Position numbers and translations under genes: made by a program
Origin: a virus
Direction: 5' to 3' (one strand)
Virus record (IMG/VR): IMGVR_UViG_3300045988_094189
Location: 1 to 42,303 of that record
Length of the DNA stretch: 42,303 bases
Shown here: in pieces, positions 14,455-39,664 of the stretch
How positions within the stretch are numbered: position 1 is the stretch's first letter
How the letters are laid out: the number at the start of each line of letters is the position of its first letter
Notes under the pieces: model-generated
Databases searched by the model: none
Told to the model about the DNA's origin: nothing
What the model saw: the letters and a program-made list of their open reading frames with translations, nothing else

Positions 14455-14753
14455 TACCAAGAGCAAAAAAACCGAAAAAGAAAGCGATACACAGACCTGC
14501 CAAGACGCCTTTTGAATACGTTAAGGCGACAAACTATCTGAATATCGCCGCAATGGTCAGAACCCTTGCTACAGTCTACGACTGGAACAAGGAACAGATT
14601 GATGAATTTATGGAATCTCATATGGCATTATTGCAGGAGATTTCAGACCATAGAACAAACATAAAGCGGTTTGTGGCGGACACCGAAGAACTTACCGGTG
14701 TGAATATTACAGACCTAATAGATAAGACCTGCGAGGTCATTGAAAGGAGCTGA
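14445..14753 (+). CDS. Hypothetical protein
   Basis: 102 aa. GTG start, or TTG at 14451 after GAGGTG. Confidence 0.55.
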   Translation: MELIPRAKKPKKKAIHRPAKTPFEYVKATNYLNIAAMVRTLATVYDWNKEQIDEFMESHMALLQEISDHRTNIKRFVADTEELTGVNITDLIDKTCEVIERS

Positions 14754-14757
14754 AACG

Positions 14758-14949
14758 ATGAAAATAAAAGATTTTATATTGCTCAACCCCTGCCCGAAAT
14801 GCGGCGGCGACGCTGAGGCGGTTACAACGTGGTATGCAAACGGCGGCGACGGCTACACAAAGCAGGTCGTACGCTGTACAGTATGCGGCAAAAATGTCGC
14901 AAGAACAACTGGACAGGAAGCGGTCAAGGCGTGGAACAGTTTGAGATAA
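14758..14949 (+). CDS. Lar-family restriction-alleviation-like zinc-ribbon protein
   Basis: 63 aa: LNPCPKCGGDAEAV...VRCTVCGKNVARTTGQEAVKAWNS fits the Lar pattern CPxCG...CxxCG...eAi.aWN. The ATG at 14758 follows AAAGGAG. Confidence 0.65.
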   Translation: MKIKDFILLNPCPKCGGDAEAVTTWYANGGDGYTKQVVRCTVCGKNVARTTGQEAVKAWNSLR

Positions 14950-15575: not shown

Positions 15576-15992
15576 GTGCTTGAGAGTTACAGAAAAATCA
15601 ACGTTGAAGAGTTCTTGAGAGATTACCGGGACAACTGCGCCAAGCTGGCAGAACTGAAAAGAGAAAAAGAGTACCTGCTAGGCGCTGCAGGCGTTGACAC
15701 GACAAAAGAGACAGTTAAAGGCGCGCCAAGTTCGCCCACTGAAAACGCAGCGGTTGCAAGGGAACGAATAGACCGCAAGATAGCAGCCCTTGAGGAGTAC
15801 TTCCGGGCGTTTAATGCGGCGATGGACTTCTTAGATGACACAGACAGGCAGATAGTCCAAGAGTTCTATGTCGCCAACAACCCGACAGCCCTATCAGCCA
15901 CAATGCGGCTGCAGCGGTTAGGCTACAGCGACAGAGCTATCAGAGCGAAGCGAGAAAAGGCAATCAAGCGGTTGTATCACTTTTTCAATTAA
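15576..15992 (+). CDS. ArpU/RinA-like late-gene transcriptional activator (sigma region-4-like)
   Basis: 138 aa. LDDTDRQIVQEFYVANNP...ATMRLQRLGYSDRAIRAKREKAIKRL resembles sigma-70 region 4. It is the last gene of the early operon, just before the packaging genes. Confidence 0.65.
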   Translation: MLESYRKINVEEFLRDYRDNCAKLAELKREKEYLLGAAGVDTTKETVKGAPSSPTENAAVARERIDRKIAALEEYFRAFNAAMDFLDDTDRQIVQEFYVANNPTALSATMRLQRLGYSDRAIRAKREKAIKRLYHFFN

Positions 15993-16012
15993 ATCGCTGT
16001 AAAACAAAAATA

Positions 16013-16029
16013 GCCCCCTTTACGGGGGC
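16013..16029. terminator. Bidirectional intrinsic terminator between convergent operons
   Basis: GCCCCC-tttac-GGGGGC. A T-run follows on the minus-strand reading (tatttttgtttt), and cttgtgttt follows on the plus strand. Confidence 0.7.
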
Positions 16030-16036
16030 CTTGTGT

Positions 16037-16222
16037 TTAGAAGCAGCAGTATAATGGGCTGCCCTCTATGCCAAGCCTGTCGCGAACGTAGTCGCCAAGA
16101 CAAGTGGCATACCTACAAGTTGCACAGCTTCCGCCAAATCTACAATCTGTGGAAACGCTGTCGCATTTTGGAGCGTTTTTAATTATTCGCTCCGCCTTTT
16201 TTATTTCAGTTTCTGTATACAT
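16037..16222 (-). CDS. Cassette gene 5: small Cys-rich protein
   Basis: 61 aa with 7 Cys (CDSVSTDCRFGGSCATCRYATC...YCC). Last gene of the minus-strand cassette. Confidence 0.6.
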   Translation of the reverse strand: MYTETEIKKAERIIKNAPKCDSVSTDCRFGGSCATCRYATCLGDYVRDRLGIEGSPLYCCF

Positions 16223-16224
16223 TG

Positions 16225-16452
16225 TTACAGCTCCTTTCCTTGCTTTCTGTTGCCGCCTTTGTTCTCGGCGACACGAAAACTGTTGTGGTTTTCTCTATAT
16301 TCTCGCAAGGCGGCCTTTATAAGACCTGCCTTGCTGTTTGTCTTCGCGAACATATCCAATATGTCCGCGTCTGTGCTGTGGTACAGGGTGACTGTCACCC
16401 TATCCGCGTTTGCTTTTTTCCAAGCGGCGTCCCGCTGATTTTTTGTTGCCAT
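16225..16452 (-). CDS. Cassette gene 4: ribbon-helix-helix-like DNA-binding protein (candidate autoregulator)
   Basis: 75 aa. ADRVTVTLYHSTDADILDMFAKTNSKAGLIKAALREY has the beta-strand/helix/helix pattern of CopG/Arc RHH proteins. Confidence 0.6.
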   Translation of the reverse strand: MATKNQRDAAWKKANADRVTVTLYHSTDADILDMFAKTNSKAGLIKAALREYRENHNSFRVAENKGGNRKQGKEL

Positions 16453-16455
16453 TCT

Positions 16456-16992
16456 TCACGCTCCCTCAAATCTTGCAATCCCAGTCGGGCAATAATCCGT
16501 GCCGTGTTTTTCGTCGAGTTCTCTAAGATATTTCTCAATTATGTCATTCTGTTTCTCGCAAATCTTAAAAAACGTATCGTATTCCCAGCTTTCTTCTTTC
16601 CAGAGGGTATACCCACTATGAGGGAAAAAGGCATTCGGGTTTTCTTCATTGAATTTATCGGCTCTTTCCTCCCATTCTTCTCTTTCTTCATCTGAGAGCA
16701 AGTCATAATAGTCCTCTTCGCCGGGCATATCACAGGAAATCAACAATTTCAATTCTGGCAATCCTACTTCTTTTAACTTATAACTCATGTTGTAATCATT
16801 GCAGTCGCTAAATTCATTCAGCAAATCAGCAGCGTTGCGGTTCCACATACTCTCGAATGAGCAGTGGAACTCGTGTCTTTTTGCGCATAGCTCCTGAATA
16901 ACGTCGTGCTGTTCAGGTGTCAATGTTTTTATTTCCTCATTCTCTCTGTTCTTTCGTTCTACGTACTTTTCTTTTGCTTCCCACTTATCCAT
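16456..16992 (-). CDS. Cassette gene 3: acidic protein of unknown function
   Basis: 178 aa, visibly D/E-rich (GEEDYYDLLSDEEREEWEERADKFNEENP). SD GGAGTAAGCGAGG lies upstream. No family recognised. Confidence 0.7.
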   Translation of the reverse strand: MDKWEAKEKYVERKNRENEEIKTLTPEQHDVIQELCAKRHEFHCSFESMWNRNAADLLNEFSDCNDYNMSYKLKEVGLPELKLLISCDMPGEEDYYDLLSDEEREEWEERADKFNEENPNAFFPHSGYTLWKEESWEYDTFFKICEKQNDIIEKYLRELDEKHGTDYCPTGIARFEGA

Positions 16993-17025
16993 ATTTACCT
17001 CGCTTACTCCTTTTCTTTTTATTAT

Positions 17026-17041
17026 GCCCCCGTAAGGGGGC
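17026..17041. other. GC-clamp hairpin in the leader of cassette gene 3
   Basis: GCCCCC-gtaa-GGGGGC. No U-run follows on the minus-strand transcript, so it is more likely an RNA stability or processing element than a terminator. Confidence 0.5.
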
Positions 17042-17102
17042 GAGTGTCAACCTGTTTCGCTCTTGCTCATCAGTGCCGGACTTTTACCGGCAGACAGGGG
17101 GG

Positions 17103-17258
17103 CTATATCCTAACCCCTAGCAACATACAATTGCGCTTTGCCTCGCAGAGTGTGAGCCAGTTCTCAGGGCTCATATCTGATATGTAGTTGGCTTTTGCTT
17201 TCATATATACCGCCTTTGCCGCGGCCTTTCTGTCTTCTAACTGCCTTAAATGTGTCAT
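17103..17258 (-). CDS. Cassette gene 2: small helical protein
   Basis: Not in the ORF track (51 aa): MTHLRQLEDRKAAAKAVYMKAKANYISDMSPENWLTLCEAKRNCMLLGVRI. SD GGGAGGTG lies 6 nt upstream. Confidence 0.6.
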   Translation of the reverse strand: MTHLRQLEDRKAAAKAVYMKAKANYISDMSPENWLTLCEAKRNCMLLGVRI

Positions 17259-17259
17259 T

Positions 17260-17421
17260 TTACACCTCCCACGCTTCCGCTTCTTCTAATGTACGGAAGT
17301 ATTTACCGCCGCCGCAGTAGCACCAAGTCTTACCGCCGTCTATGCTGCGCCATATCTGCGCATTGTAGTTATAACCGTCTACCGGAAGCTCTAGCTTCTT
17401 TATTTCTTTCTTTTCTAACAT
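17260..17421 (-). CDS. Cassette gene 1: small protein
   Basis: Not in the ORF track (53 aa): MLEKKEIKKLELPVDGYNYNAQIWRSIDGGKTWCYCGGGKYFRTLEEAEAWEV. SD AAAGGAG is upstream. The stop is 1 nt before the start of gene 2. Confidence 0.6.
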   Translation of the reverse strand: MLEKKEIKKLELPVDGYNYNAQIWRSIDGGKTWCYCGGGKYFRTLEEAEAWEV

Positions 17422-17458
17422 TTTTGTTTTCTCCTTTTCATTGCTTAGCTGTTGTTGT

Positions 17459-17474
17459 AACGGGCTGTTCCGTT
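17459..17474. promoter_or_regulatory. Operator palindrome 1 (AACGGGCTGTTCCGTT)
   Basis: 16-bp inverted repeat with one mismatch. It lies just downstream of the predicted transcription start of the cassette. Confidence 0.6.
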
Positions 17475-17485
17475 GCTGTGATTAC

Positions 17486-17514
17486 ATAGTACAACGGGCT
17501 GTCCCGTTTGTCAA
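17486..17514 (-). promoter_or_regulatory. Consensus sigma-70 promoter of the antisense cassette
   Basis: The minus strand reads TTGACA (17509..17514), a 17-nt spacer, then TACTAT (17486..17491). The spacer is filled by operator palindrome 2. Confidence 0.7.
17493..17508. promoter_or_regulatory. Operator palindrome 2 (AACGGGCTGTCCCGTT, perfect)
   Basis: Perfect 6-N4-6 inverted repeat occupying the -35/-10 spacer. Confidence 0.65.
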
Positions 17515-17562
17515 CAGTTTTTTTAAAACTTTTTCAAACTTTTTTAAAAAAACCCCGCAAAC

Positions 17563-17578
17563 CGTTGAAATTCCAACG
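17563..17578. repeat. CGTTGAAATTCCAACG near-palindrome upstream of terS
   Basis: 7 of 8 palindromic pairs. The flanking context aaACCGTTGAAATwCCAACGa is shared with the copy at 18474. Confidence 0.5.
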
Positions 17579-17768
17579 AAAAAATTTTAAAAATGTGCCA
17601 ACAGGAAGCCAAGCGGCGCGCATATAATGTATTATAATATATATAACAAAAGTATTTCTTCTACAACTGATTGTTTCATAGTTTTAAATTTACTCCTTGA
17701 AAGATATTCGGACGACAGCGGGACAAAATCCTGCTGTTTTTCGTTATGTTGGGGGAAAGGGGGCACAT

Positions 17769-18332
17769 ATGGCAGTAATAGAAAGCACAGCAGAAGTAAT
17801 AAATATTAAAGACACAGCCCCTAAGGGCAAGAGTAGGAAATGTAAGACAGCAGAGGAGACCGCAGCATACAAGGGGAAGAGAGGCGAGAGCTTCTCAGGC
17901 AACAACGGCAAGTCCGGCAGAGGCAGGGGAACGGGCGCAGGCAATCCGAGAGCCTTTACCAGTGCAGATGATCTCATAGACAAGCAGATAGCATACTGTA
18001 AATATATCAAAGATACAGGATATACAGAGTACCCAACTAAGAACGGATTCGCTGAATGGCTAGAAGTAGACCCAAAAACTGTTTATTTAAGCATTAAACG
18101 CTACTATCCGGAAGTTCAAAAACAGTGGCAGGAGAACATAGAGCAAACCCTTGTAAACGGCGTAAATGCAGGGGTTTACCACGTCACAATGACTATTTTC
18201 ATACTGAAAAACTGGTGTAACTGGGCGGACAGAAAAGAAAACATCACGACAGAGAAGAAGCCACAGATCGCAACAAAGGCAGAGCTAAAGGAGGCTATCA
18301 CAGCCTATCTGCAGGCTCCAGTAGACGAATAA
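17769..18332 (+). CDS. terS: Terminase small subunit
   Basis: 187 aa from ATG 17769 (SD GGGGAAAGGGGG). PTKNGFAEWLEVDPKTVY (HTH-like) and MTIFILKNWCNWADRKE match the Terminase_2-type pattern. It lies upstream of terL. Confidence 0.75.
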   Translation: MAVIESTAEVINIKDTAPKGKSRKCKTAEETAAYKGKRGESFSGNNGKSGRGRGTGAGNPRAFTSADDLIDKQIAYCKYIKDTGYTEYPTKNGFAEWLEVDPKTVYLSIKRYYPEVQKQWQENIEQTLVNGVNAGVYHVTMTIFILKNWCNWADRKENITTEKKPQIATKAELKEAITAYLQAPVDE

Positions 18333-18473
18333 ACATACAACCAATTGAATAAAAGTATCAGAATATCCCGAGGAAATACCTCAAAATATGAATAAATAGC
18401 GCATATTCATTGCATAAAGCAGTATAACAGAATATGCATAGATACAGCATACGCACCATAAAACAGCTAGAAC

Positions 18474-18489
18474 CGTTGAAATACCAACG
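18474..18489. repeat. CGTTGAAATACCAACG near-palindrome downstream of terS
   Basis: Same 16-mer with one substitution. Non-coding. Confidence 0.5.
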
Positions 18490-18512
18490 ATTATAGGCAT
18501 TATGAGTATGCA

Positions 18513-18544
18513 ACTATTCCGAAGATAAGGATTTTCGGAATAGT
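18513..18544. other. 11-bp perfect hairpin in the terS-terL spacer
   Basis: actattccgaa-gataaggatt-ttcggaatagt, followed by ttaaac. It could be a weak terminator or part of a larger RNA or DNA structure. Confidence 0.5.
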
Positions 18545-18755
18545 TTAAACATACATATACCCTGAAGATTTTTTTTTGAGGGTATACGGGGGACTGGGGG
18601 ATACCGGGGTACCGGGTAGTGAATACCGGTATAGTCCAAGTAGCAAGTATCGAATCCGAAAGACCCCCCTCGTCGAAACTCAGCCCCGTAGGTAGGGTAC
18701 CTCACCCGTGCAACCCAATTTCAAAACACCCCCTACCCAAAAATAGGTGGTATGT

Positions 18756-18825
18756 GCCGACGTAGCTCAGATGGTAAGGCCTGTTAAGCACAAGGTCGCA
18801 GGTTCAAGTCCTGCTGTCGGCGCCA
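18756..18825 (+). tRNA. tRNA-like element / degenerate tRNA (Asn-GTT-like loop, truncated anticodon arm)
   Basis: - Acceptor stem GCCGACG/TGTCGGC: 7 bp with one G-U pair.
- D arm GCTC-agatggta-AGGC.
- T arm GCAGG-TTCAAGT-CCTGC.
- Discriminator G plus an encoded CCA.
- Only 11 nt sit where the 17-nt anticodon arm should be. They include CTGTTAA, but no 5-bp stem can form. Confidence 0.55.
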
Positions 18826-18904
18826 GCAATCCAAATTACCTCCGAAGCATTTCGGGAAAATCCTTTTAAGTCGTGGCAGGAGACTGAAAACCCTGCCTTT
18901 TTAC

Positions 18905-38920: not shown

Positions 38921-39664
38921 ATGCGAATCAATGTACATTGTGGGCATAACGCCGCAGGCAGGGTTGCCTGCGGCGCCGTGTCTATCTTAAACGAAAGCAG
39001 AGAGAACAGAAAAGTCGGAAAAGAAGTCATCAGACTTCTGAGAATTGATAATACTGTGTATGATTGTACGGTAGATAATGCGGAAGATGTGAACAAGAAC
39101 CTACAGGAGATCATAGCAAAATGCAATGCTCACGAAGTTGACCTTGATGTTTCAATTCACTTTAACAGCGGAGCGAAAAACAAGAAAGGCAACGGTAAGG
39201 TTACTGGCACAGAAGTATGGGTTACCGAAAACAAGGGCATAAAAAGAGTTGTCGGCGAAAACATATGCAACAATATGAAACGATTAGGCTTTACGAATCG
39301 TGGGATAAAGAAAACAAGCGGACTTTATGTCCTTAATCACACAAAGGCAAAAGCAATTCTTATAGAGGTATGCTTCGTTGACGACTTAGACGACGCAAGG
39401 CTGTACCGCAAGGTAGGTTATAAGGCTGTGGCAAGAGCCATTGCGGAGGGAATTGTCGGCCACAAAATCGACGAAAGACCAAAGTATAAGGCGGTGAGGA
39501 ATGTCAATATCAGAAAATCCCCTACAATCCACTCAGATAAGCTAGGAGCAATTAAAAAGGGTGAGGCAATAAAGGGTATACCCGTAGAGAATAACTGGCT
39601 GAAAACGGACAGGGGATATGTAAGAATCAAAGGCCTTAAAACATACTTAAAGAGGGAGAAATAA
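38921..39664 (+). CDS. Endolysin: N-acetylmuramoyl-L-alanine amidase (Amidase_3) + SH3-like binding domain
   Basis: 247 aa from ATG 38921 (SD GGAAGTGGAGG). Zn ligand pattern HCGH..NESRE..SIHFN..EVCFVD. The C-terminus YKAVRNVNIRKSPTIHSDKLGAIKKGEAIKG..NNWLKTDRGYV is SH3-like. Confidence 0.9.
   Translation: MRINVHCGHNAAGRVACGAVSILNESRENRKVGKEVIRLLRIDNTVYDCTVDNAEDVNKNLQEIIAKCNAHEVDLDVSIHFNSGAKNKKGNGKVTGTEVWVTENKGIKRVVGENICNNMKRLGFTNRGIKKTSGLYVLNHTKAKAILIEVCFVDDLDDARLYRKVGYKAVARAIAEGIVGHKIDERPKYKAVRNVNIRKSPTIHSDKLGAIKKGEAIKGIPVENNWLKTDRGYVRIKGLKTYLKREK

Follow-up and report, generated by a model that had tools for sequence, protein, structure and literature searches.

The five-gene cassette on the minus strand of the viral sequence IMGVR_UViG_3300045988_094189 (IMG/VR; 42,303 nucleotides, all of which were analysed and are referred to below as the window) is probably an autoregulated anti-CRISPR operon of the acr-aca type, carried by a temperate phage of Firmicutes type. 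In this operon, a gene of a known anti-CRISPR (Acr) family and a small gene of predicted DNA-binding type are located together behind a promoter, P1, that bears two inverted repeats, the putative operators O1 and O2 (Table 1). A sequence-only reading of the same DNA had already regarded the cassette as an acr-aca-like, autoregulated anti-defence candidate. This idea is now supported by the homology of one of the five proteins to AcrVA1, by the swapped cargo genes at the corresponding position in sister phages, and by the co-variation of the regulator with the palindromes.

The 178-residue protein encoded by the third open reading frame (ORF3) is, at the sequence level, a full-length homologue of AcrVA1. 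An AlphaFold2 (AF2) model of the protein is all-helical, with a predicted local distance difference test (pLDDT) score of 74, and a Foldseek search with this model in BFVD retrieved gut-virome proteins annotated as 'Cpf1, AcrVA1/RNA complex', with TM-scores of 0.48-0.71 depending on the normalisation. Because these names mention AcrVA1, the protein was compared directly with the sequence of 6NMD chain B. In a phmmer search, residues 4-175 aligned with residues 6-173 of AcrVA1 (PDB 6NMD_B; E = 1.6e-23, 86.8 bits), BLASTP gave 38% identity (E = 2e-28), and the profile of the 178-residue family matched AcrVA1 with E = 8.2e-31. The sequence-only reading had recognised no family for any of the five proteins, which was wrong for this one. 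Only seven close relatives were returned by a first, word-based search with the protein; a search with the family profile gathered 106 clusters, including one named 'AcrVA1, Moraxella bovoculi' in UniRef, nearly all the others being unannotated.

AcrVA1 bears a negative charge; it mimics the protospacer adjacent motif (PAM) in the Cas12a pocket and truncates the CRISPR RNA (crRNA), which is gripped by its helices 1 and 2 (PMC7556299). In a joint alignment of the gut clade with AcrVA1, T25, E27, Q28, H29, L35, C36, R39, H40, F42 and H43 of the helix-2 region and G164, T165, Y167, C168, P169, G171 and R174 of the C-terminus are invariant, and helix 1 of the 178-residue protein is rich in Lys and Arg. 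The two proteins thus share the helix-2 motif LT.EQH...LC..RH.FH and the C-terminal motif GT.YCPTG..R. They are also alike in length (178 versus about 170 residues) and acidity (isoelectric points of 4.55 and 4.35, respectively), and the 178-residue protein is helical in its model. Unlike AcrVA1, which is encoded in a Moraxella bovoculi prophage (PDB 6NMD/6NMC), the 178-residue protein is encoded in a gut phage of Firmicutes type and its gene is partnered with a small regulator resembling ribbon-helix-helix (RHH) proteins. We infer from the homology that the 178-residue protein inhibits Cas12a. The earlier suggestion that the acidic protein is the effector and possibly a DNA mimic holds for the effector part, as it belongs to the AcrVA1 family; however, AcrVA1 combines PAM mimicry with crRNA truncation and is not a plain DNA mimic.

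The second line of evidence comes from sister phages (the loci compared with the window are designated by L numbers). The junction between the small terminase gene (terS) and the late-regulator gene, together with P1 and a 75-residue protein corresponding to ORF4, is common to these phages, whereas the cargo differs. Across nine sister loci, P1 and the 75-residue protein are constant, and the slot just upstream of the 75-residue gene holds an AcrVA1 homologue, an unrelated protein of 60, 79, 85, 90, 152 or 211 residues, or no gene. At least seven different unrelated occupants, mostly acidic, were found in this slot when it was not empty. The minimal cassette, in L026, consists of P1, the operators, the 75-residue protein and an ORF5-like gene. 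The other cistrons are exchanged as well. The exact sequence of ORF1 is present on 94 contigs, and ORF1 occurs in some of the sister cassettes and is missing from others; ORF2 is kept in the window, L001, L027, L124, L125 and L127. In L026 and L126, the position of ORF5 is taken by proteins of 115-117 residues, to whose C-terminal half ORF5 is homologous, and elsewhere this position is filled by unrelated acidic proteins of 60 or 54 residues. The combination of a conserved regulator with variable, mostly small and acidic neighbours is the signature of an acr-aca locus. The sequence-only reading had suggested looking in related phages for the same promoter-operator-RHH unit with different small genes, and this is what the sister loci contain: the unit is conserved and the small genes next to it are swapped.

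P1 had been described as near perfect. Its hexamers and 17-nucleotide spacer were confirmed, but it matches the consensus at 10 of 12 positions, so that it is a good promoter that falls short of the earlier description. Likewise, O1 fills the spacer as described but is not the perfect palindrome that had been claimed, since its complementary 6-bp arms (AACGGG/CCCGTT) enclose a non-symmetric centre of 4 nucleotides and it is therefore not a perfect 16-mer. The second copy, with a single mismatch and just past the predicted transcription start, was found as described, 34 bp from O1. No further match to AACGGG-N4-CCCGTT with one mismatch or fewer was found in the 42-kb window besides O1 and O2. 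The amidase gene contains a palindrome-like site with two mismatches (39571-39586), which we regard as a chance match.

In an alignment of the promoters of eight sister loci, neither the hexamers nor the GTAATCACAG behind them varied, whereas the spacer is swapped. Three types of palindrome were found, and each of them goes with one variant of the 75-residue protein, as defined by its N-terminal strand region (types A, B and B' in Table 1). Where the protein variant differs from that of the window, O2 is replaced by ACGG-GGACA-CCGT or ACGC-GGAGG-GCGT. The B' palindrome differs from that of type B in both arms with the symmetry kept, and the differences between the B and B' proteins are almost confined to residues 15-30. 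Within type A, the arms are conserved and the centre drifts (TCAT in L026; ACAA in O2 of L001). Although indirect, this co-variation of regulator and operator variants is the strongest argument for the 75-residue protein, acting as a symmetric oligomer, being the cognate binder of the palindromes, and we infer that it represses P1 by binding them.

What kind of protein this putative autorepressor is can be judged from its family. An exhaustive profile search collected 743 representatives (membership required a profile E of 1e-3 or better); a word-based search with the protein returned four relatives. The family consensus consists of W-K-x-N-T, a segment of alternating hydrophobic and polar residues, TDADI and IK-x-ALREY, a pattern that suggests an RHH protein. 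The top three profile matches in the PDB, two regulators of the CopG family and 2Q2K (the ParR-DNA complex of pSK41), are all RHH proteins, with weak scores (E = 0.048-0.21). Matches to Pfam families below threshold were obtained for VapB_antitoxin in 9 of 101 family members, and for BrnA, RHH_1 and 56B_RHH in a few. The locus search relied on a 20-sequence subset, the 101-member alignment being too diverse. The 75-residue protein is probably best described as RHH-like rather than as an established RHH protein.

An RHH-type Aca protein has a precedent. Aca14 from Pasteurella multocida, reported in 2026, was demonstrated experimentally to repress acr promoters through inverted repeats, acting on its own operon and on a neighbouring one (PMC13551039). 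The cassette resembles this system in having a small RHH-like regulator in the aca position and inverted repeats in the promoter. However, the Aca14 motif is AT-rich and lies over the -10 element, whereas the motif of the cassette is GC-rich and lies in the -35/-10 spacer and again past the transcription start, and Aca14 originates from Proteobacteria, whereas the 75-residue family comes from gut and rumen elements of Firmicutes type. With the acr-aca operons that carry helix-turn-helix (HTH) regulators (Aca1, Aca2 and others), the cassette shares a strong promoter with inverted repeats, small variable effector genes, and a conserved small gene of DNA-binding type within the operon that is usable as an anchor for guilt-by-association searches. 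Unlike in those operons, the regulator is not an HTH protein and stands in mid-operon with one gene after it, and within the cassette there are also a promoter-like site and a candidate ribozyme.

These two internal elements, which the sequence-only reading had overlooked, are located between ORF2 and ORF3. The ribozyme candidate, a type III hammerhead, matched the full Rfam model RF00008 (Hammerhead_3) with 30.1 bits and E = 6e-4, below the gathering score of 48.5. Its core is complete, comprising CUGAUGA, GAAA and the cleavage triplet GUC, with a stem II of 2 bp and an open stem III, and its minimum-free-energy fold is a three-way junction. Sister phages (L001, L027, L028, L124-L127) carry the identical element at various gene junctions, and an independent copy (L044:370-430) has an intact core and compensatory changes in three base pairs. 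In the stems, 98% of the cells are paired compared with 31-42% in slid controls, a value derived from only four distinct sequences, and a descriptor search gave eight matches in the loci versus none in shuffled sequences. Bacterial hammerheads were reported to reside frequently in prophages and to flank single genes, and a stem II of two base pairs is common among them (Perreault et al. 2011, PMC3088659). The candidate is like them in its complete catalytic core and short stem II, and its position between cistrons of a phage operon is consistent with processing of a polycistronic RNA; it is unlike them in lying in an anti-CRISPR operon, at junctions of swappable modules, and in scoring below the Rfam gathering threshold. 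More hammerhead-like cores (CUGAUGA ... GAAAC), with stems II of 6 bp, were seen on rumen mobile-element contigs that carry a gene of the 75-residue family (L034, L042, L062 and L101).

The promoter-like site P2 contains the hairpin GCCCCC-TTAC-GGGGGC in its spacer. P2 could be a promoter, or it could provide a stabilising hairpin at the 5' end of the processed RNA. The former is favoured because the unit is conserved from TTGACA exactly onward in L001, L027 and L127 behind upstream DNA that differs. In addition, a leader, GCTAAGCAATGAAAAGGAG, is repeated after O2 and, in several loci, after the hammerhead; it could be a site at which modules are exchanged by recombination.

Other phages have their AcrVA1 homologues in a similar setting: the genes occupy the same terS-divergent position, and the consensus promoters in front of them carry a repeated motif in the spacer. 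The promoter of L129 (TTGACT, 17 nucleotides, TATAAT) carries the motif CCATTGGGC in the spacer and again upstream, and its operon encodes the AcrVA1 homologue, the product of a 92-residue gene and a terminal 55-residue protein whose HTH matches are weak and below threshold. L130 has a possibly related RHH-like gene of 65 residues in one operon; a J-domain protein, a 131-residue protein and an AcrVA1 homologue are under the control of a second promoter, which bears GTTAAACAAC repeats. In elements resembling integrative and conjugative elements (ICEs; L003/L004, L133), an HTH gene lies directly upstream of the AcrVA1 homologue. One Acr family combined with different regulators is as expected of acr genes. 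From the side of the regulator, distant members of the 75-residue family (L009 and L031) are followed immediately by AcrIC5-family genes (PF22147, E = 1e-18 and 4e-13; 67.7 bits, the cut-off being 27). When 60 neighbours of 75-residue-family genes were scanned with Pfam, AcrIC5 turned up once, and the only other matches were FtsK, a zincin-like peptidase and weak ones. In the rumen set, the upstream neighbours are hypervariable, with 56 clusters among 76 genes.

The ICE-like contigs had several further features. In L003, the HTH gene upstream of the AcrVA1 homologue encodes a 142-residue HTH_3/HTH_19 protein. The same contig encodes a 230-residue protein (L003:4425-5117) that shares only the C-terminal motif of the AcrVA1 family (..EYCPAGTSRYESEEDFEL) and adjoins a giant protein of more than 1900 residues (L003/L004:1-4369) whose domains are ArdC, an Eco57I-like methylase and an SNF2 helicase. 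On the contigs L018-L020, L022 and L025, the AcrVA1 homologues are embedded in long runs of small acidic ORFs, and a CHAP/lysozyme protein is encoded as well.

Several observations weigh against the interpretation as an autoregulated anti-CRISPR operon. Regarding the regulator, the RHH profile matches reach only E = 0.05-0.2, the AF2 monomer of the 75-residue protein, predicted from a five-sequence alignment, is all-helical without any strand (pLDDT 59), and hhalign comparisons of the family with CopG and Arc were not significant. The commonest downstream neighbour of its homologues is a protein with a transmembrane (TM) helix and a coiled coil (29 of 63 loci), which means that the family is not dedicated to acr loci. 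P2 contains no operator of the AACGGG type, nor does it vary in step with the regulator types; as its hairpin is unchanged across them, the 75-residue protein probably does not act there, and an active P2 would leave the acr gene not fully gated by O1 and O2. With P2 and the ribozyme candidate upstream of it, the twin operators may not be the sole control of this gene. Regarding the effector, Foldseek returned nothing with E below 3.7 when PDB structures were searched with the AF2 model, and it missed AcrVA1, which the sequence search finds. Conservation relative to AcrVA1 is low in the middle third of the protein, and D95/S96 of AcrVA1, on which complex formation is reported to depend, are aligned with E102/E103 within an acidic loop whose alignment is poor; the W107 that follows this loop is invariant with AcrVA1.

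The TM/coiled-coil neighbours are proteins of 130-240 residues with an N-terminal TM helix and a long coiled coil (L032, L036, L051, L079 and about 25 other rumen loci), and in L011, L012 and L060 a tyrosine-recombinase-like gene follows.

Part of these observations could be accommodated if a different repressor, either a CI-like HTH protein of the phage or a host factor, bound the palindromes, in which case the locus would still be anti-CRISPR without being autoregulated and the 75-residue protein could be an RHH protein of the relaxosome or partition type, or an effector. The RHH fold and DNA binding of this protein are putative, its rumen relatives are mostly paired with the TM/coiled-coil protein near recombinases, and P2 is without an operator. 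We nevertheless consider such an arrangement unlikely, because each of the three regulator variants goes with its own operator variant in an otherwise constant promoter, because the B and B' proteins differ mainly in residues 15-30, and because the minimal cassette retains just P1, the operators and the 75-residue protein in front of its last gene.

A second possibility is that the AcrVA1-like protein has a target other than Cas12a. Homologues that are 75-92% identical to the window protein are encoded directly upstream of an Endonuclea_NS_2 gene in L018-L020, L022 and L025, whose product is a secreted nuclease of 382-388 residues with a signal peptide. The protein could thus confer immunity to this ICE nuclease, the phage copy being an orphan immunity gene, and the lack of conservation at the Cas12a-contacting D95/S96 would agree with that. 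This scenario is very unlikely in our view: conservation of the protein is highest in the N-terminal helices and the C-terminal motif that it has in common with AcrVA1, no nuclease gene is adjacent in the phage, L003, L021, L129 or L130, and the adjacency comes from one family of related elements. We give the least credence to a lysogeny moron, exclusion or toxin-antitoxin module (with the 75-residue protein as antitoxin and ORF5 as toxin) that would serve prophage maintenance or superinfection exclusion instead of counter-defence: the phage is temperate with an integrase, some members of the 75-residue family have sub-threshold VapB and BrnA antitoxin matches, and only 2 nucleotides separate the 75-residue gene from ORF5, but a bona fide Acr family member lies within the operon, and the toxin-antitoxin version was rejected because the gene downstream varies among close relatives (61-residue Cys-rich, 60-residue acidic Cys-rich, 54-residue acidic or 115-117-residue products) and no toxin family was found by family-library scans or the PDB sequence search.

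An autoregulated anti-CRISPR operon would operate as follows. The host sigma-70 RNA polymerase would fire P1 once the DNA enters the cell, and the AcrVA1-family protein would inactivate the Cas12a-crRNA complex by occupying the PAM pocket and truncating the crRNA, as suggested by its homology. The 75-residue protein, translated from the same transcript, would bind both palindromes, in P1 and just past it, as a dimer or higher oligomer and shut the promoter off, as the co-variation implies, which would limit expression later in infection and in the lysogen. The hammerhead candidate would cleave the P1 transcript between ORF2 and ORF3, and the part comprising the acr gene, the regulator and ORF5 might also be started at P2. 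By processing, separate initiation or both, the two elements would probably uncouple this part from ORF1 and ORF2. ORF1, ORF2 and ORF5 would be accessory genes of the same swappable locus.

Reading the minus strand from 15700 to 17900 bore out the five closely packed genes with the sizes given before, together spanning 16037-17421 and each preceded by a Shine-Dalgarno-like site. The gaps between ORF1 and ORF2, ORF3 and ORF4, and ORF4 and ORF5 are 1-3 nucleotides. The expected bidirectional terminator at the end of the cassette was located as well. The cassette also lies where it had been placed, between a late-regulator-like gene (PHROG 36, E = 1e-14) on one flank and a weakly supported terS (GP3_package, E = 3e-4; PHROG 606, E = 4e-4), followed by the large terminase gene (terL), on the other. 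It is not the only antisense multi-gene block, as had been stated, since the integrase gene (191-1204) and two further ORFs beyond it, reaching 2231, are on the minus strand too. The Arm-binding and catalytic domains of the integrase indicate a temperate phage, and the nearest relatives of terL are Staphylococcus and Bacillus phage terminases (44-46% identity).

Table 1. Features of the cassette, types of regulator and palindrome, and gene orders in the window and sister loci
Feature	Position in window	Strand	Description
Promoter P1	17486-17514	minus	TTGACA, 17-nucleotide spacer, TACTAT; 10/12 consensus positions
Operator O1 (putative)	17493-17508		AACGGG-ACAG-CCCGTT on the minus strand; fills the -35/-10 spacer
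Operator O2 (putative)	17459-17474		AACGGA-ACAG-CCCGTT; about +5 to +20 from the predicted transcription start
ORF1	17260-17421	minus	53 residues; one Asp-box-like SxDxGxTW motif
ORF2	17103-17258	minus	51 residues, basic
Candidate type III hammerhead ribozyme	17049-17100	minus	Predicted cleavage after C at 17093
P2 promoter-like site	17021-17050	minus	TTGACA, 18 nucleotides, CATAAT; 11/12 consensus positions
ORF3	16456-16992	minus	178 residues, isoelectric point 4.55, 45 Asp + Glu; AcrVA1-family homologue
ORF4	16225-16452	minus	75 residues, isoelectric point 9.9; RHH-like, putative autorepressor (Aca analogue)
ORF5	16037-16222	minus	61 residues, 7 Cys
Bidirectional intrinsic terminator	16012-16030	both	From terminator scan; common to the convergent late-regulator gene
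Type A			Strand region DRVTVTLYHS; palindrome AACGG[GA]-ACAG-CCCGTT, two copies
Type B			Strand region TTYQTIKLNY; palindrome ACGG-GGACA-CCGT
Type B'			Strand region TTSQTIKLNNN; palindrome ACGC-GGAGG-GCGT
Order, window			ORF1, ORF2, (hammerhead candidate, P2), AcrVA1-like, 75-residue, ORF5
Order, L001			ORF2, 87-residue, (P2), 90-residue acidic, 75-residue, 60-residue Cys-rich acidic
Order, L002			152-residue acidic, 75-residue, 60-residue
Order, L026			75-residue directly after P1, 117-residue with ORF5-like C-terminal half
Order, L027			ORF2, (P2), 79-residue acidic, 75-residue
Order, L124 and L125			ORF1, ORF2, 85-residue with signal peptide, 75-residue, 54-residue acidic
Order, L126			137-residue, 85-residue, 211-residue acidic, 75-residue, 115-residue
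Order, L127			ORF1, ORF2, 87-residue, (P2), 60-residue acidic, 75-residue, 54-residue

Searches of general libraries were less informative for the cassette. Pfam, PHROGs, NCBIfam and PADLOC gave no significant match for any of the five proteins, and ORF2 had neither a family match nor a PDB match. No match was found among INPHARED phages to the cassette region (blastn) or the 178-residue protein (tblastn), nor among PLSDB plasmids to the latter (tblastn). When 15 concatenated cargo and neighbour proteins were compared with PDB sequences, only weak Xre-type matches, to the HTH protein of L003, were obtained.

Elsewhere in the window, a 69-residue zinc-ribbon protein (14740-14949, plus strand) matches the Lar restriction-alleviation protein (PF14354, E = 1.6e-7, above the cut-off; PHROG 599), and its gene is likely a second anti-defence gene, in the early region about 1 kb from the cassette. 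ARAGORN found no tRNA genes in the terS-terL region (18333-18904) or anywhere else in the window; one to three are present in sister phages (L001:3383-3854, L124:6325-6391, L125:6368-6438 and L127:6509-6575), those of L001 between terS and terL. The large terminase of L002 (1530-3989, minus strand in the locus) has 819 residues compared with 485 in the window, owing to an insertion of about 334 residues just past the Walker-A GK. This insertion looks like an intein because it contains the LAGLIDADG-like motif LLAGLIDTDGY and ends in HN.

Taken together, our results support an acr-aca-type operon that combines an AcrVA1-family gene, a probably RHH-type autoregulator, co-varying twin operators, three small accessory genes and a putative internal ribozyme/promoter junction. 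It is quite possible, though short of probable, that the W-K-x-N-T / TDADI / IK-x-ALREY family constitutes a new RHH-type Aca family, unrelated to Aca14, and governs an anti-defence slot with readily exchanged content beside terS in Firmicutes phages of the gut. If so, the acidic proteins of 60, 79, 90, 152 and 211 residues, the secreted 85-residue protein, ORF1, ORF2 and ORF5 would be new inhibitors of Cas12a or other defences, and portable junctions, both for transcript processing and for recombinational module swapping, would be provided by the hammerhead, P2 and the leader repeat. The swappable slot offers about eight small candidate proteins, and the three naturally co-varying regulator/operator pairs are a ready-made set for specificity swaps. 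The ribozyme candidate could help to find out which role hammerheads have in phage operons. AcrVA1, which inhibits Cas12a with a broad spectrum, is already used as a Cas12a off-switch. Its orthologues reportedly have a narrow distribution; with at least 106 clusters, nearly all unannotated, in metagenomic phages and ICE-like elements, the family is larger than annotation suggests, and some of its members may be better matched to Lachnospiraceae or Acidaminococcus Cas12a. RHH-type Aca proteins were first described only in 2026, and the conserved small regulator found here may become a non-HTH anchor for guilt-by-association searches for anti-defence genes in Firmicutes mobile elements.

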